Shown here piece after piece: positions 3,399-63,403 of a stretch of 64,000 nucleotides of DNA. The notes under the pieces are model-generated. The model ran no database searches, was not told the DNA's origin, and saw only the letters and a program-made list of their open reading frames with translations. The position numbers and the translations under genes are program-made. Source of the DNA: Minisyncoccota bacterium (GTDB lineage: Bacteria > Patescibacteriota > Minisyncoccia > Phycocordibacterales > UBA9973); contig JBAYKO010000001.1 of NCBI GenBank assembly GCA_041664605.1, forward strand, positions 83,586-147,585, given 5' to 3'. The stretch's first letter is position 1. Every line of letters starts with the position of its first letter.

Positions 3399-4649
3399 AT
3401 GAAATTATTATCAGAAGAATTGCAAAAAAGAGGTTTTATTTATCAGTTTTCAGAGGAAAAATTAGAAGATATAACAGATAAAGAAAAAAGAACTCTGTAT
3501 GTGGGTATTGATCCTACTGCTGATTCTCTGCACGTTGGTCATCTTGTTGCACTTTTAATGTTGCGACATTTTCAAAGCTACGGACATAAAATTATTATTA
3601 TTGTTGGTGGTGCAACTGGAATGATTGGTGACCCATCAGGGAAAAGCAAAGAAAGAAATTTACTTGATAATAAAACTCTTAAGAAAAATGTAAAAGGAAT
3701 AAAAGCTCAAGTAAAGAGTATTCTTGGAAATTCAAATTTTACAATTACAAATAACAATGATTGGTTTAAAAAGATCAAGGTTTTAGATTTTCTTCGAGAT
3801 ACAGGAAAACACTTTACAATCAACGCTTTAATTAAGAGAGATTCTATTGAAAAAAGAATGACAGGGGATGAGGGGATTTCTTATACAGAATTTAGTTATG
3901 TGCTTTTGCAATCTTACGACTTCTTACATTTATTTAAAAAATATGGGTGCAATCTTCAGATTGGTGGATCTGATCAATGGGGGAATATTGTTTCGGGGAT
4001 AGATTTAATTAGAAAAGTTGAAGATAAAAAGGTTTATGGAATAACTTGTCCTTTAATAATTAATGAAGCCACGGGGGAGAAATTTGGAAAATCAGAAGGT
4101 GGAAATGTTTGGTTGTCGGCTGAGAGAACTTCGTCTTTTGCTTTCTTTCAATTCTGGCTAAACGTTGATGACAAGAGCGCAGTAAAATATCTAAAAATTT
4201 ATAGTCCGCTTTCTATCGAAAAAATAAATGGCATAGAAAATGATTTTATAAAAAATCCTGAAAATAGATTAGCTCAGAAATCTTTGGCTTATGAAATGAC
4301 TAAGCTTATTCATGGAGAACAATCAGCAATTGCTTCAAAAAAAGTCTCAGAAATATTATTTGAAAACAAGGAAATAGAAAATTTATCTCAAGAAGAAAAG
4401 AAACTTTTGACTTCTGAAATCAAAAGCGTTTCAGCTAAAATTGGAGATGGAATTAAAATTGCTGACGCTTTAGTTATGGCAGAACTTACTCAATCAAAAG
4501 GGGAAGCAGGGAGACTCTTGAAAGAAGGCGGAGTTTCTGTAAATAATGAAAAAGTAGACGAAGAATACATTATAACTTCCAAAGATTCAAAAAACGGAAT
4601 AATTTTGATAAAAAAAGGAAAGAAAAACTTTGCCTGTCTTTTGGTGTAA
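3399..4649 (+). CDS. tyrS: Tyrosyl-tRNA synthetase (class I), with C-terminal S4-like domain
   Basis: HIGH motif variant (SLHVGHL), KMSKS variant (KFGKSEG), GGSDQWGNI. The ORF-track start at 3381 is a TTG inside element F. The ATG at 3399 matches the start-codon placement of the other family copies. Confidence 0.9.
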   Translation: MKLLSEELQKRGFIYQFSEEKLEDITDKEKRTLYVGIDPTADSLHVGHLVALLMLRHFQSYGHKIIIIVGGATGMIGDPSGKSKERNLLDNKTLKKNVKGIKAQVKSILGNSNFTITNNNDWFKKIKVLDFLRDTGKHFTINALIKRDSIEKRMTGDEGISYTEFSYVLLQSYDFLHLFKKYGCNLQIGGSDQWGNIVSGIDLIRKVEDKKVYGITCPLIINEATGEKFGKSEGGNVWLSAERTSSFAFFQFWLNVDDKSAVKYLKIYSPLSIEKINGIENDFIKNPENRLAQKSLAYEMTKLIHGEQSAIASKKVSEILFENKEIENLSQEEKKLLTSEIKSVSAKIGDGIKIADALVMAELTQSKGEAGRLLKEGGVSVNNEKVDEEYIITSKDSKNGIILIKKGKKNFACLLV

Positions 4650-4660
4650 ATTAAATTAAT

Positions 4661-4698
4661 AACATCCTTACTCCGACCATGGTCGGAGTAAGGATGTT
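4661..4698. terminator. Perfect 18-bp palindromic hairpin after tyrS (probable terminator/RNA stabiliser)
   Basis: AACATCCTTACTCCGACC-AT-GGTCGGAGTAAGGATGTT. No strong T-run follows, so terminator function is uncertain. Confidence 0.5.
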
Positions 4699-4770
4699 AT
4701 TAATGTTGACAAAATATTAAATTATTGATATATTGGAAATTAGAAAAAAGTTTTTTTTAATATAGATTTT

Positions 4771-5103
4771 ATGGCAGAACTTAATTTACAGTTACCGAGA
4801 TGGTTTTACGATAAATGGATTTTGTTAAACAATAAAGATCCCTTGATCAAAGAATTAATAAATTTTGCTCTTATTTTTGAGCAAGATATGGTAATTAAAA
4901 CACAGAATCAAAAACCACTGGAAGCTTCAGAAAAATTGGAAATCGGTTTTTTGGAAAAATTGCGCAAATCTTATGTAGAATGGAAAGATTCTGCCTATGA
5001 AGTTTTTTTAGGACCAGATTCTTCAGAAATAGAGAAAGTAATTAAAAAATTTCGTGAACACTATAAAGAGTATGTTCTTTTTTTAGAAGCTGGTTCTCTT
5101 TGA
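4771..5103 (+). CDS. Hypothetical small protein (110 aa)
   Basis: C-terminal KKFREHYKEYVLFLE is paralogous to the C-terminus of ORF 5369-5551. Followed by a terminator. Confidence 0.5.
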   Translation: MAELNLQLPRWFYDKWILLNNKDPLIKELINFALIFEQDMVIKTQNQKPLEASEKLEIGFLEKLRKSYVEWKDSAYEVFLGPDSSEIEKVIKKFREHYKEYVLFLEAGSL

Positions 5104-5107
5104 TTTT

Positions 5108-5136
5108 AAAAAACCCCGCAATTGCGGGGTTTTTTA
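5108..5136 (+). terminator. Rho-independent terminator (CCCCGCAATTGCGGGG + T7)
   Basis: Stem 5114-5129. Same stem family recurs at 5573-5588, 8959-8974 and 20877-20896. Confidence 0.85.
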
Positions 5137-5368
5137 TTTTGTTTAGGTCTTATGTTTATTATTTAATGTGTTTAATTGACAAAACAAAGAGGTCTGATAA
5201 TCTTAAATTAGAAAAGTTTTTAAAAAATTATTATGAGTCAAATGAAGTTACCAGCTTTTTTGTCAATACAATTGTTGTCAAATTTGGATACATTTGCAAT
5301 ACATCTAAAAAATGTTGCAACTCAAATAGAAGAGGACAAACTTCTAAAAACTCCAAAACAAAAACCCC

Positions 5369-5551
5369 ATGGAGGCAACTAGAAACAACACTATGGGAAT
5401 GGTATTGTGTACCGCCATTAAGACTGAATGGTATGTGGCAGGAAAAATATTAGTTGAACTAAAAAACAACGATTTAAAACAAGCTAACAGACTGATAAAA
5501 AAATTTAGGAGTTATTATAAAGATTACCTTTCATTTTTGGAATCAGAATAA
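5369..5551 (+). CDS. Hypothetical small protein (60 aa), paralog of the C-terminal part of ORF 4771-5103
   Basis: KKFRSYYKDYLSFLE aligns with KKFREHYKEYVLFLE. Followed by a terminator of the same family. Confidence 0.4.
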   Translation: MEATRNNTMGMVLCTAIKTEWYVAGKILVELKNNDLKQANRLIKKFRSYYKDYLSFLESE

Positions 5552-5565
5552 TCTTTTTGTTCTTC

Positions 5566-5594
5566 TTAAAATCCCCGCAATCGCGGGGTTTTTA
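5566..5594. terminator. Bidirectional terminator (CCCCGCAATCGCGGGG) between small ORF (+) and cysS (-)
   Basis: Stem 5573-5588 with T/A runs on both sides. Confidence 0.8.
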
Positions 5595-6920
5595 AATTTT
5601 AGTAATTCTAGGTCCAGATGGAGTATCTTCTATATTGTAACCAGCAGTAGCACTAATTTGGCGAAATCTATCAGCTTCTTCCCAGTTTTTTTCTTTACGA
5701 ACTATTTCTCTTGCTTCTACTAATTTTAAAATATCTTCTGGAATTTCTAAAGTTTCTTTTTCCAACAATTTAAAACCAAAAATTTGATCAATTATTTCGA
5801 TTGTTTTATATTTTCCCTCAGCATTCTCATCTCGTAAAAGTTCCCATAGTGAAGCCAATGCTTTGGGGGTGTTTAAATCTGAATTCATAGCTTCTTTAAA
5901 TTTGTCTAAATATTTTTCATTTATTTTTCCATCATTTTTTAAATCTTTAGAAATATTTTTTAGTCTGTTGTAGGAGTTTTGAGCATCGTCTAATGAATTT
6001 TTTGAAAAATCTGTTGGTTTCCTGTAGTGTGCCGATGTAACAAAATATCTTATAATTTCACCAGAATAACTTAGAAGTATGTCTCTTATTGTTTTAAAGT
6101 TTCCAAGGCTTTTACTCATTTTTATTCCATCGACATTTACCATTCCATTGTGAATCCAGAAATTTGCCATTTTTGCACCCCAAGCAGATTCACTTTGGGC
6201 AATCTCATCTTCATGGTGGGGAAAGATCAAATCTTGTCCACCTCCGTGAATGTCAAAAGGAATTCCCAGAATACTTTCAGACATAGCAGAACATTCTATA
6301 TGCCAACCTGGTCTACCTTTGCCAAATGGGGTATCCCATTCTGGTTCATTTGGTTTTGAAAATTTCCAAAGTACAAAATCTTCCTTATTCTTTTTTTCTC
6401 TATTTTCTAGAACCCGCGCACCAGATTTTAAATTTTCAATTTTTTGGTGGGACAGTTTTCCATATTCTTTGTATTTTGAAATATCAAAGTAAATTCCATC
6501 GTCTTTTATTGTATAAGCGTATTCTTTTTCAATAAGTAAAGTTACAAGATTTATCATTTGTTTGATATATTCTGTAGCTTTTGGTTCTACATCAGGTTTT
6601 TCTACTCCAATTTTCTCATAATCTTCAATATGAGCTTTTGTATTTTTTTCTGTTAAATCTTTTGTAGTCTCATGTAATTCGCGTGCTTTATCAATTATTT
6701 TGTCGTCAATATCAGTAATATTTGAAGCAAACATTACATCATAGCCTAGAAATCTTAAATATTTTCTTAAAATATCAAAAGTAATTTTCTGTCTTGCATG
6801 GCCTAAGTGGGGGACATCGTTTACTGTTGGTCCACAAACATACATTCTAACAGCACCTTCTTTTATGGGTTTAAATTCTTCTTCTTTTTTTGTGAGAGTG
6901 TTATAGAGTTTTAGAGACAT
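5592..6920 (-). CDS. cysS: Cysteinyl-tRNA synthetase
   Basis: HIGH (PHLGHAR), KMSKS (KMSKSLGN), CGPTVND zinc-site region. Confidence 0.93.
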   Translation of the reverse strand: MSLKLYNTLTKKEEEFKPIKEGAVRMYVCGPTVNDVPHLGHARQKITFDILRKYLRFLGYDVMFASNITDIDDKIIDKARELHETTKDLTEKNTKAHIEDYEKIGVEKPDVEPKATEYIKQMINLVTLLIEKEYAYTIKDDGIYFDISKYKEYGKLSHQKIENLKSGARVLENREKKNKEDFVLWKFSKPNEPEWDTPFGKGRPGWHIECSAMSESILGIPFDIHGGGQDLIFPHHEDEIAQSESAWGAKMANFWIHNGMVNVDGIKMSKSLGNFKTIRDILLSYSGEIIRYFVTSAHYRKPTDFSKNSLDDAQNSYNRLKNISKDLKNDGKINEKYLDKFKEAMNSDLNTPKALASLWELLRDENAEGKYKTIEIIDQIFGFKLLEKETLEIPEDILKLVEAREIVRKEKNWEEADRFRQISATAGYNIEDTPSGPRITKI

Positions 6921-9046: not shown

Positions 9047-9274
9047 ATGGATTCATTTTTGAAAATATTAAACAGTATTATATTTTATTTATTTGGGTTT
9101 GTTTCAGGAATGTTATTTATTGGTATTATGGTTGTTCTTTTAAAAGAAGACATCCCGCCAAAGGTTATTTTTGAAAATAAAGATTTTATTATTTTTGAAT
9201 ATCAAGGTGGATATATAAATCCAATTGAGAAAAATTACAGGGAATCATTCCAAAAAATCACCCCTCAGGGGTGA
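9047..9274 (+). CDS. Hypothetical small membrane protein (75 aa)
   Basis: N-terminal TM helix. Terminator-like hairpin TCACCCCTCAGGGGTGA at 9259-9276. Confidence 0.45.
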   Translation: MDSFLKILNSIIFYLFGFVSGMLFIGIMVVLLKEDIPPKVIFENKDFIIFEYQGGYINPIEKNYRESFQKITPQG

Positions 9275-9341
9275 TTTTTTATTGACAGTTTTTTAAAGCA
9301 TTTTTGAAATAATTTTTATTAAAATATGCTATACTCAAATT

Positions 9342-52242: not shown

Positions 52243-52274
52243 CAAAAACCCCCGACCTAGGTCGGGGGTTTTAA
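52243..52274. terminator. Bidirectional terminator (CCCCCGACCTAGGTCGGGGG)
   Basis: Palindromic GC stem 52249-52268 with A/T runs. Confidence 0.8.
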
Positions 52275-56328: not shown

Positions 56329-56380
56329 AAGTGACACAATTTCTGCAGGTGCAGAAATTGTGTCACTTCGTGTTTTTTGC
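56329..56380 (+). terminator. 19-bp perfect hairpin plus T6 (plus-strand terminator geometry) immediately 3' of gatB stop
   Basis: AAGTGACACAATTTCTGCAG-GTG-CTGCAGAAATTGTGTCACTT then CGTGTTTTTTG. Confidence 0.6.
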
Positions 56381-62608: not shown

Positions 62609-62629
62609 TGCGAAAGTCTTGCTTTCGCA
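62609..62629 (+). repeat. REP hairpin 1 (TGCGAAAG-TCTTG-CTTTCGCA) flanking RAYT gene
   Basis: 8-bp stem, 5-nt loop. Inverted copy at 63344-63364. Direct copy inside the CDS at 63027-63047. Confidence 0.7.
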
Positions 62630-62635
62630 AAACCA

Positions 62636-63319
62636 TTATTCTTTAGTATTTAACCAATCTAATATTTCTTTATTAAAATCTTTCATATCAAAAAAATATT
62701 TTGGAAAATTTTTTAAATCAATGATTTTATTTTCTTGTCTATTGTAATTTTGAAAATCAACATAACTACTCCATTTGTATTTATTTAAAAATTCTAATGA
62801 TTTTTTTACATCCCTGATTCCTTCTTCTTTCCATTTTAAGTCAATAAGTTTTATTGGATTCAAATGAATATATGAAAAAAGATATTTTGCTTGATTGTCC
62901 TTTTCTATGTGAACAGACTTATACTTTCCTTCAAAAAGTCCACCATTACGTTCATATTTGGCATTAAAATATTTTGAGTAAGCAGTTAAAACTTTTTGCA
63001 TAAACATAGCAATAGCACTCGAATTCTGCGAAAGTCTTGCTTTCGCATTTGGTGTAAGATATATATGAAAATGATTTGGCATTAAAACCCAAGCACCAAT
63101 AAAAACTATTGATTCTCCTTTATCAAAATCCCATGCATTAATTTTTGCTCTTACAATTTGTTCTCTGAAATCAATTCTTTCTTTAGAATTACAAATGTAT
63201 AAAAGTTTTAAAAAACGATCACGATCTTCGTTATCTAAAAAAATTTCTTGTTTGCTATTTCCCCTATTGTAAATATGATAATACTCCCCATCTATAAGTG
63301 GAATTTTGCGTATAGACAT
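62636..63319 (-). mobile_element. IS200/IS605-like Y1 (HUH) transposase of the REP-associated (RAYT) type
   Basis: YHIYNRGN N-terminus, HUH motif (HFHIY), catalytic Tyr region (YIHLNPIK). 227 aa, longer than IS200 TnpA. Flanked by inverted REP hairpins. Confidence 0.75.
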
Positions 63320-63343
63320 ATGAATATTATATAAAAACCAGTT

Positions 63344-63364
63344 TGCGAAAGCAAGACTTTCGCA
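63344..63364 (-). repeat. REP hairpin 2 (inverted copy: TGCGAAAG-CAAGA-CTTTCGCA)
   Basis: Reverse complement of REP 1, 24 nt upstream of the RAYT start. Confidence 0.7.
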
Positions 63365-63403
63365 AACTCTTAGTTTTTAATCAAGATGTGATAAAATAGA
63401 AAA

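Follow-up and report, generated by a model that had tools for sequence, protein, structure and literature searches.

A RAYT-like gene of Patescibacteria with three matching hairpins at its own locus

What binds a transposase-like gene to the hairpins that stand around it and within it: the bond of a mobile element to its ends, that of an enzyme to a dispersed population of repeats, or that of a resident gene to sites of its own? The question is raised by a locus lying near the right end of a 64,000-nt stretch of DNA (hereafter, the window) from a Minisyncoccota bacterium (assembly GCA_041664605.1, contig JBAYKO010000001.1, positions 83,586 to 147,585 of the forward strand), which holds a gene resembling those of the REP-associated tyrosine transposases (RAYTs, REP standing for repetitive extragenic palindromic sequence) and three copies of a 21-nt hairpin. 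Among domesticated transposases, RAYTs are the classic example, although what they do for their host is still to be established; to our knowledge, work on them has dealt almost entirely with Proteobacteria, where REPs number in the hundreds. According to our analysis, the locus is probably a single-copy, vertically inherited and domesticated RAYT-like gene of Paceibacterota (Patescibacteria/candidate phyla radiation, CPR), accompanied by a private trio of cognate hairpins.

The gene and its three hairpins

The following features of the window are needed to describe the locus (ORF: open reading frame).

62636..63319, minus strand: gene for the RAYT-like Y1 HUH protein, 227 aa, stop codon included (ORF with ATG start; homology, motifs and fold)
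63065..63076, minus strand: NHFH codons, i.e., the HUH motif, residues 82-85 (sequence and alignment conservation)
62855..62872, minus strand: YIHLNP codons, i.e., the class-2 tyrosine motif, residues 150-155 (sequence and alignment conservation)
63340..63368, no strand: upstream hairpin (U), with its core 21-mer at 63344-63364 (pattern search and DNA folding)
63027..63047, no strand: internal hairpin (I), an exact 21-mer, in frame, residues 91-97
62609..62629, no strand: downstream hairpin (D), terminator-like (pattern search and DNA folding)

The 21-mer TGCGAAAGTCTTGCTTTCGCA occupies positions 62609-62629 and its exact reverse complement positions 63344-63364, as claimed in an earlier note made from the letters of this DNA, which had missed a third exact copy, at 63027-63047, located within the ORF and oriented like the downstream one. 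Chance matches to the 21-mer are expected at 0.00 (100 shuffles). Allowing up to three mismatches, no copy beyond these three was found in the 64-kb window, and the 10 kb past its right end hold no further copy. Each of the three hairpins is made of an 8-bp stem and a 5-nt loop, the stem of U, which reads AGTTTGCGAAAG-TCTTG-CTTTCGCAAACT on the gene strand, being extended to 12 bp; the DNA folding energies of U, I and D are -13, -8.6 and -8.3 kcal/mol, with z-scores of -6.5, -4.6 and -3.9, respectively. The core of U lies 24 nt 5' of the ATG, and U is followed on the gene strand by GGTTTTT, while D begins 6 nt past the stop codon, with CTTTTAT coming next on the same strand. Finally, I codes for AKARLSQ (residues 91-97), a few codons past the HUH motif, and in the protein it falls in the loop that links strand beta3 (HUH) to helix alphaC.

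The product of the ORF at 62636..63319, the translation of which starts GEYYHIYNRGNSKQ / MSIRKIPLIDGEYYHIYNRGNSKQ, carries NHFHIY at residues 82-87 and YLFSYIHLNP at residues 146-155, confirming the HUH and catalytic-tyrosine regions of a Y1 transposase that the earlier note had read there. In our two alignments (A1 and A2), neither H83 nor H85 varies, N82 is constant in A1 and almost constant in A2, and F84 is constant in A1 only; at the second motif, Y150 and P155 are invariant in both, and I151, H152 and N154 nearly invariant in A2. The catalytic tyrosine is presumably Y150, with Y146 as the alternative. Because the tyrosine motif YIHLNP has the form Y-x3-NP, which is the signature of class 2 (TnpAREP/RAYT), and not the Y-x3-Q of IS200 TnpA (PMC6006769), the sequence supports a RAYT/TnpAREP-type Y1 HUH enzyme and not an IS200 TnpA. 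The sole NCBIfam match of the 227-aa protein is NF047646 (REP_Tyr_transpos, E 1.4e-11), and no IS200 model was matched in the same scan. In a Foldseek ranking, 4ER8 (TnpAREP bound to a REP hairpin) comes top, followed by ISDra2, IS608 and IS200 TnpA, and no TnpB is found among the neighbouring genes of the locus; on these grounds, the attribution of the protein to the RAYT type, already made in the earlier note, stands.

An AlphaFold model, built from 20 close homologues and used only for the order of secondary structures and for a weak fold match, predicts the order b1-aA-b2-b3(HUH)-loop-aC-b4-aD(Tyr), which is that of Y1 HUH proteins, and its loop of low pLDDT (predicted local distance difference test), residues 92-100, is the hairpin-encoded stretch. 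The protein also has a C-terminal tail of roughly 70 residues with a WSSY motif, and its W-motif position reads FE. Judging from a motif comparison only, the features NHFH, FE, YIHLNP, the WSSY tail and the length of 227 aa match subclass 2.1 of the RAYT classification best.

The three sites across relatives

The 227-aa protein is identical to the hypothetical protein WDK96_00845 (P0001) of a Candidatus Paceibacterota metagenome-assembled genome; besides it, the best 120 matches are 62-81% identical, and the names among them are Paceibacterota, Nomurabacteria, Parcubacteria and Patescibacteria. The family is large: at least 7,909 proteins, among 8,000 scored candidates, match at E <= 0.001, and when 1.84 billion representatives of 50%-identity clusters were searched with a profile, 18,725 matched at E <= 0.001, 6,174 at <= 1e-10 and 381 at <= 1e-30. 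For several homologues at 64-69% identity, a match to Pfam PF01797 (Y1_Tnp) is precomputed. Our literature searches found no description of this CPR RAYT-like family.

For comparison, 80 metagenomic loci of Patescibacteria encoding relatives 60-80% identical were sampled, 69 of which are non-redundant and complete. In nearly all of the 80, a perfect GC-rich hairpin lies ~30 nt past the HUH codons and is repeated 5' of the ATG and 3' of the stop codon. A GC hairpin is present at all three sites in 62 of the 69 non-redundant complete loci, the median position of the hairpin centre being 35 nt upstream of the ATG for the first site, 282 nt from the start of the ORF for the second and 13.5 nt past the stop codon for the third. 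The sequences vary by genome (31 distinct internal arm types among the loci) and agree inside each locus, the identity of the 9-nt arm being 8.17/9 within a locus vs. 4.86/9 between loci. Moreover, the stem pairs +-6, +-7 and +-9 exist as 3-4 Watson-Crick pair types and are paired in 87-98% of cases at each of the three sites, with G.T pairs almost absent from the stems at these sites, a near-absence that favours their being read as DNA rather than as RNA. Finally, in a neighbour-joining tree of the protein with the loop masked, the loci cluster by hairpin type, which means that the hairpin set co-diverges with the protein.

Agreement within a locus is not always complete: in L003, L004, L012-15, L017 and L078 (L numbers designate individual loci of the comparison), one of the copies is behind the others by 1-2 nt or by an arm. 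The orientation of the loop is biased at U (CCTTG 31 : CAAGG 4), with no such bias at I (11:25) or D (13:18), and the loop orientations of the flanking copies relative to each other vary among loci. The flanking copies of relatives are usually embedded in A-run/T-run extensions, and the downstream one often overlaps or contains the stop codon. In L019, L022, L043, L056 and L069, for instance, the stop (TAG or TAA) falls within the 5' arm of the downstream hairpin; where the hairpin overlaps the stop in this way, the internal copy of the same sequence is translated in a different frame. In L078 and L080, the ORF contains a second, inverted copy at nt 493, ~220 nt further downstream than the usual internal site. 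Many relatives also show tandem partial copies (one arm and part of the loop) beside the flanking hairpins, as in acggaagcctt-aaaa-acggaagcctt-aaaa-acggaagccttgcttccg. They are found at L063 3926-4000 (upstream of the gene) and L012 ~2833-2885, as well as in L002, L020, L025, L038, L041, L055, L061 and L074, and L012 even has a hairpin nested within its own copy. Such partial copies might have arisen by slippage or be scars left at the loop by strand transfer.

The internal copy has an origin that more distant relatives help to read. Because relatives at 33-49% identity lack ~8 residues exactly at the hairpin-encoded peptide of the window clade, the internal hairpin is an insertion of about 8 residues relative to them. 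Nine of these relatives were sampled at the DNA level. One (L094) has a hairpin at the same internal place (codon 89), another (L096) has matching palindromes at both ends only, and three (L084, L085 and L095) have a matching trio of their own, in which the internal copy stands at codon 52, within the variable region that precedes strand b2, and the 3' copy inside the last codons of the ORF. Judging from these sequences, the intragenic insertion arose more than once, the codon-52 site being a second, independent position. Upstream of the gene of L085, which now has a TCCGCAAGG-type trio, two decayed hairpins of the TGCGGAAG type, i.e., the type of the relatives of the window, stand at 1699-1767 (85 and 133 nt from the gene) and may be relics of an earlier hairpin generation.

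Could the three hairpins be ordinary bidirectional terminators, or mRNA structures, unrelated to the enzyme and alike through local duplication and gene conversion between nearby palindromes? A terminator scan finds U terminator-like on both strands and all three sites terminator-like in some orientation, the A-run/T-run extensions of the flanking copies in relatives are like those of the other terminators of the genome, and the half-hairpin duplications suggest replication slippage at palindromes. However, the other strong hairpins of the window are mostly terminators, each unique in sequence: only the hairpin of the RAYT-like locus is repeated, and no other gene of the window reuses a terminator sequence. 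I has no T-run on the sense strand and lies in a coding loop, where a terminator would do harm, and its stem has been kept Watson-Crick through 3-4 pair types across 60-80% protein identity. Moreover, a second clade evolved a trio with its internal copy at another codon, and the hairpins accompany specifically a family of hairpin-binding enzymes, whose cognate hairpins have been documented both around and inside the gene. We consider terminators or mRNA structures an unlikely explanation of the trio, and prefer hairpins that are cognate to the enzyme.

In the sequence available, these hairpins show no dispersal. Only three copies occur in the 74 kb read of the 168-kb source contig, and the 261 kb of non-redundant flanks of the relatives contain 10 extra copies, all <= 1.2 kb from the gene. 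The earlier note, which saw a REP hairpin here, had named two findings that would speak against it; the first, a hairpin restricted to this locus, is what the count gives (3 copies/74 kb), whereas the second, a score in favour of an IS200-like protein together with a TnpB remnant, is not observed. No second copy of the gene exists in the 64-kb window. Low copy number and vertical inheritance are as in RAYTs, with one copy in 64 kb, recurrent synteny and a hairpin type that follows the tree. The neighbouring genes fall into five recurrent syntenic contexts, and differing hairpins are found inside one context: the order RNase_T exonuclease <- gene -> YqeY is common to the window, L003, L027, L043 and L072, with different hairpins. 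No relative of the protein was found in viral contigs, and the plasmid and phage collections yielded no close relative, their matches reaching only 25-31% identity.

These results bear on the possibility that the locus is an autonomous IS200-like insertion sequence (IS), in which U and D would be the left- and right-end hairpins of a ~756-bp element moving by single-strand peel-and-paste, and I a scar or an alternative end. Its size and layout (hairpin, Y1 gene, hairpin) are indeed like those of IS200, the fold match to IS608/ISDra2 TnpA is nearly as good as that to TnpAREP, extra hairpin copies occasionally occur near the gene in relatives, and in a short contig (L093) the gene is truncated exactly at the internal hairpin. 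An IS200-like element is nevertheless at odds with the Y-x3-NP motif and the lack of any IS200 match in NCBIfam, as it is with a gene present once in the window and a hairpin found nowhere else in 74 kb. Synteny is kept within clades while the hairpin sequence changes, and the proteins of the 80 loci, at 60-80% identity, are not the near-identical copies of a mobile element; the lack of TnpB and of viral relatives, and the distant plasmid and phage matches, point the same way. Moreover, the loop orientations of the flanking copies are not fixed mutually, unlike those of strand-specific left and right ends, and a model with such ends was rejected because the relative orientation differs between loci. 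A mobile IS therefore strikes us as very improbable, and a resident, vertically inherited gene is retained.

Some further observations were made on the same sequences. In L093 (1-664), the ORF is no longer RAYT-like directly past the internal hairpin, and a unique terminator and a convergent ORF follow; this is compatible with a deletion from I to D, on a 664-bp contig without a reference. Short protein fragments that break off near residue 91 were considered as signs of hairpin-mediated rearrangement. For L092 (571 bp), in which an inverted segment follows the HUH codons, with a 6-nt palindrome (CTGAAT/ATTCAG) at the junction, this was rejected, and we judge the contig to be an assembly or amplification chimera and not biology. 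In the distant locus L090, the RAYT-like gene of which has no trio, a group II intron reverse transcriptase (RVT_1 and GIIM) is encoded ~600 nt downstream (4309-5613).

The exact 21-mer was encountered once more, at 3572-3592 of L001 (CAISUD010000061.1, another uncultured bacterial genome), inside an unrelated 473-aa ORF, just past a signal-peptide-like segment, where it codes for CESKTFA, with no RAYT-like gene in 8 kb; this one match in 596 Gb is near chance expectation. Within the window, most strong hairpins between 1593 and 59119 are intrinsic terminators of the bidirectional kind, made of an A-run, a GC stem, a 4-nt loop and a T-run, with unique stems at, e.g., 1593-1620, 5107-5136, 9252-9280 and 52245-52272. 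Two unusually long perfect palindromes, at 4655-4704 and 56329-56368 (23-bp and 18-bp stems, 4-nt loops), bear no relation to the RAYT hairpin. When the window was scanned for Rfam families and tRNAs, nothing relevant to the locus was returned.

Promoter, mechanism and points against

What could the enzyme do with such sites? The upstream hairpin offers a lead, since two promoter-like features are found in its vicinity.

63326..63331, minus strand: TATAAT -10 box, 6 nt 5' of the ATG, at a conserved position
63349..63354, minus strand: TTGCTT in the loop and 3' arm of U, a candidate weak -35 at a spacing of 17 nt from TATAAT

Of 68 related loci, 44 have an exact TATAAT 4-8 nt upstream of the ATG, vs. 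7 of the 65 other ORFs of the window, and this position suggests a leaderless mRNA, in which case the upstream hairpin would lie outside the transcript. Of the 68 loci examined, 63 have a -10-like box, and TTGnnn occurs at a spacing of 16-18 nt in 24 of these; from the end of U to the -10 box, there are 8-10 nt. A four-nucleotide motif resembling a Shine-Dalgarno (SD) sequence precedes only 2 of 65 window ORFs (ORFs >= 100 aa), and the source genome seems to have little SD-led initiation and a sizeable leaderless fraction. A role shared by the three hairpins at the RNA level was rejected, U being outside the inferred leaderless transcript and the stems having no enrichment in G.U/G.T. Since no transcript would contain all three copies and their stems are free of wobble bias, the simplest assumption is that one reader acts on them all at the DNA level.

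We infer that this reader is the protein itself, that it uses U as an operator and that the copies are homogenised. The enzyme would recognise the hairpin once the DNA is single-stranded or extruded, and its binding at U, which carries or abuts the -35 region of the leaderless promoter, would exert a feedback on transcription. The flanking copies would insulate the gene, with D doubling as a terminator, and I would be a third site for the same protein, tolerated in a disordered surface loop (beta3-alphaC). Finally, the three copies would be kept identical, even as the set diverges along with the protein, either by the enzyme, which would cleave and rejoin them, or by local gene conversion.

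A different reader can be imagined, in that the sites might be double-stranded palindromic operators for a dimeric DNA-binding protein (the C-terminal tail of the protein itself or an unlinked regulator) and not single-stranded hairpins for the HUH domain. They are near-perfect palindromes with a fixed centre, their symmetric half-sites co-vary without G.T bias, U is in an operator position beside the -10 box, and subclass 2.1 relatives have C-terminal domains of the helix-turn-helix (HTH) kind (PMC6006769). In residues 160-227, however, no HTH or other DNA-binding domain was detected (Pfam search, E up to 1). The frequent flipping of the asymmetric loop and the half-hairpin duplications are typical of sequences that extrude as hairpins, and the characterised Y1 enzymes all read hairpins of single-stranded DNA. 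Double-stranded operators appear to us quite improbable, and recognition of the hairpins by the HUH enzyme is the reading that we pursue.

Several results weigh against a domesticated RAYT-like gene with cognate hairpins and have to be set beside it. The hidden Markov model comparison proposed in the earlier note favoured REP_Tyr_transpos over IS200, as anticipated, yet with scores below the curated cut-offs: 44.5 bits for NF047646 (cut-off 80) and 20.3 bits for Pfam PF01797 (Y1_Tnp, E 6.4e-4; gathering score 23). The AlphaFold model is poor (pLDDT 58), the Foldseek TM-scores are low (0.28-0.48), making the fold match a weak one, and a sequence-profile search of the PDB (E <= 1) retrieved no Y1 structure, 4ER8 not being reached. 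Among the nine distant relatives, four (L086, L088, L090 and L091) have no matching trio. More generally, the related loci share phylogeny, so that their counts are not independent events, and the hairpin count covers 74 kb, dispersed copies, up to a few tens, being possible elsewhere in this genome.

On the side of the promoter, TTGCTT agrees with TTGACA at only 3/6 positions, which leaves the conserved position of TATAAT to carry the promoter claim; a sigma-70 promoter scan did not call the proposed promoter, the -35 being below threshold, and many genes of the source genome have a leaderless start or no SD sequence in any case. The flanks of the hairpins add a further point: over 186 sites, no conserved position was found, and GT[AG]G stands 0-2 nt 5' of the hairpin foot at 0/186 sites on the top strand and 2/186 on the bottom strand. 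This tetranucleotide defines canonical REPs and is required by the characterised TnpAREP enzymes (PMC6006769, PMC8266576). Recognition, if any, must therefore differ from that of characterised RAYTs, for which GT[AG]G is the guide. With no such foot and no dispersed population in the sequence covered, the description of these hairpins as canonical REPs, or as bacterial interspersed mosaic elements (BIMEs), which the earlier note had proposed, is not supported.

A bolder version of our reading is that the intragenic hairpin is a selected cis-element and no mere passenger, and that the domesticated HUH enzyme of a large CPR clade has the three hairpins of its own locus as its only genomic substrates; we hold this to be possible, if doubtful. 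If it were true, the locus would be a self-contained module sensing single-strandedness (due to replication or transcription), which would autoregulate its gene or switch it by hairpin-to-hairpin strand transfer, e.g., through a deletion between I and D or an inversion between U and I (of which L093 may give a hint). The enzyme itself would then keep the three sites identical, and the intragenic copy at codon 52 of the sister clade would reflect convergent selection for a site within the gene.

Comparison with known systems

Flanking inverted cognate hairpins and co-evolution of protein and hairpin are classic features of REPtrons (PMC2817692, PMC6006769), in-frame REPs inside tnpAREP have already been published for subclass 2.4 (Quentin et al. 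2018, PMC6006769), and REPtron-like loci have been mentioned in species without REP families (PMC3733652). In view of these in-frame REPs and of these loci, the phenomenon is not categorically new. Four known systems lend themselves to a comparison.

The TnpAREP/RAYT REPtrons (E. coli TnpAREP, 4ER8; groups 2 and 3 of Bertels; subclasses 2.2 and 2.5 of Quentin) resemble the window locus in that their Y1 HUH gene, which codes for the Y-x3-NP motif, is present once and inherited vertically, and in the inverted cognate hairpins that flank the gene and co-evolve with the protein (PMC6006769, PMC5581495). In contrast to them, the window locus has neither a GT[AG]G foot nor a detected dispersed population of REPs or REPINs, and its protein has a 70-residue tail with WSSY, an intragenic hairpin copy in its gene and model scores below the cut-offs of the family.

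Subclass 2.4 (Bertels group 4) is the system that shares the in-frame hairpin within the gene together with flanking copies (PMC6006769). Its motifs are NH[IFV]H, WQ and YIxNNP, without a tail; NHFH of the window protein fits, but the other positions read FE and YIHLNP, and a tail of ~70 residues follows. REPs of subclass 2.4 are long or have a double foot, carry GT[AG]G and are dispersed in the genome, whereas the hairpins of the window have no GT[AG]G and no detected dispersal. Moreover, the insertions of subclass 2.4 are variable in length, while here a single short hairpin is found at a fixed position in a large clade, and the host phyla are Cyanobacteria and Bacteroidetes there and CPR here.

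IS200 (IS200/IS605, subclass 1.1) resembles the locus in being a ~0.7-kb unit with a Y1 gene of shared fold, bounded by hairpins, the upstream one of which is able to block read-through. IS200 elements have Y-x3-Q and ~152 aa, are multi-copy and mobile and often come with tnpB, none of which is seen at the window locus (227 aa, single copy).

Subclass 2.1, or TIRYT (Bertels group 1), is the best match as far as a motif comparison goes, with NH[YF]H, W[EQ]/FQ (to which FE is close), Y[IV]HLNP and ~238 aa; it is also alike in its C-terminal extension with a conserved SS and in its low copy number. This subclass is reported to have no REP-like hairpins, some of its members having terminal inverted repeats of the form GGGG[AT][CG]A[CG], whereas the window locus has three perfect hairpins, and no such repeat was seen in the flanks of the gene in the window. 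The HTH-like C-terminal domain of subclass 2.1 was not detected in the window protein either.

Altogether, what is new with respect to these systems is the CPR host clade, a 2.1-like protein that has hairpins, and hairpins with no GTAG foot and no detectable dispersal. To this are added a position-strict, covarying layout of three sites kept across a large clade, a second internal position, and an upstream copy overlapping the candidate promoter. The family is unusually conserved in the genome-reduced Patescibacteria, with its cognate hairpins confined to their own locus as far as sequence was covered. If this holds, the relationship between enzyme and hairpin would be separated from the proliferation of REPs, and one gene with three 21-nt sites would offer a minimal system for studying the role of RAYTs in the cell and the co-evolution of target and enzyme. 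What is a variable in-frame insertion in subclass 2.4 becomes here a positionally fixed, covarying element across a whole clade.

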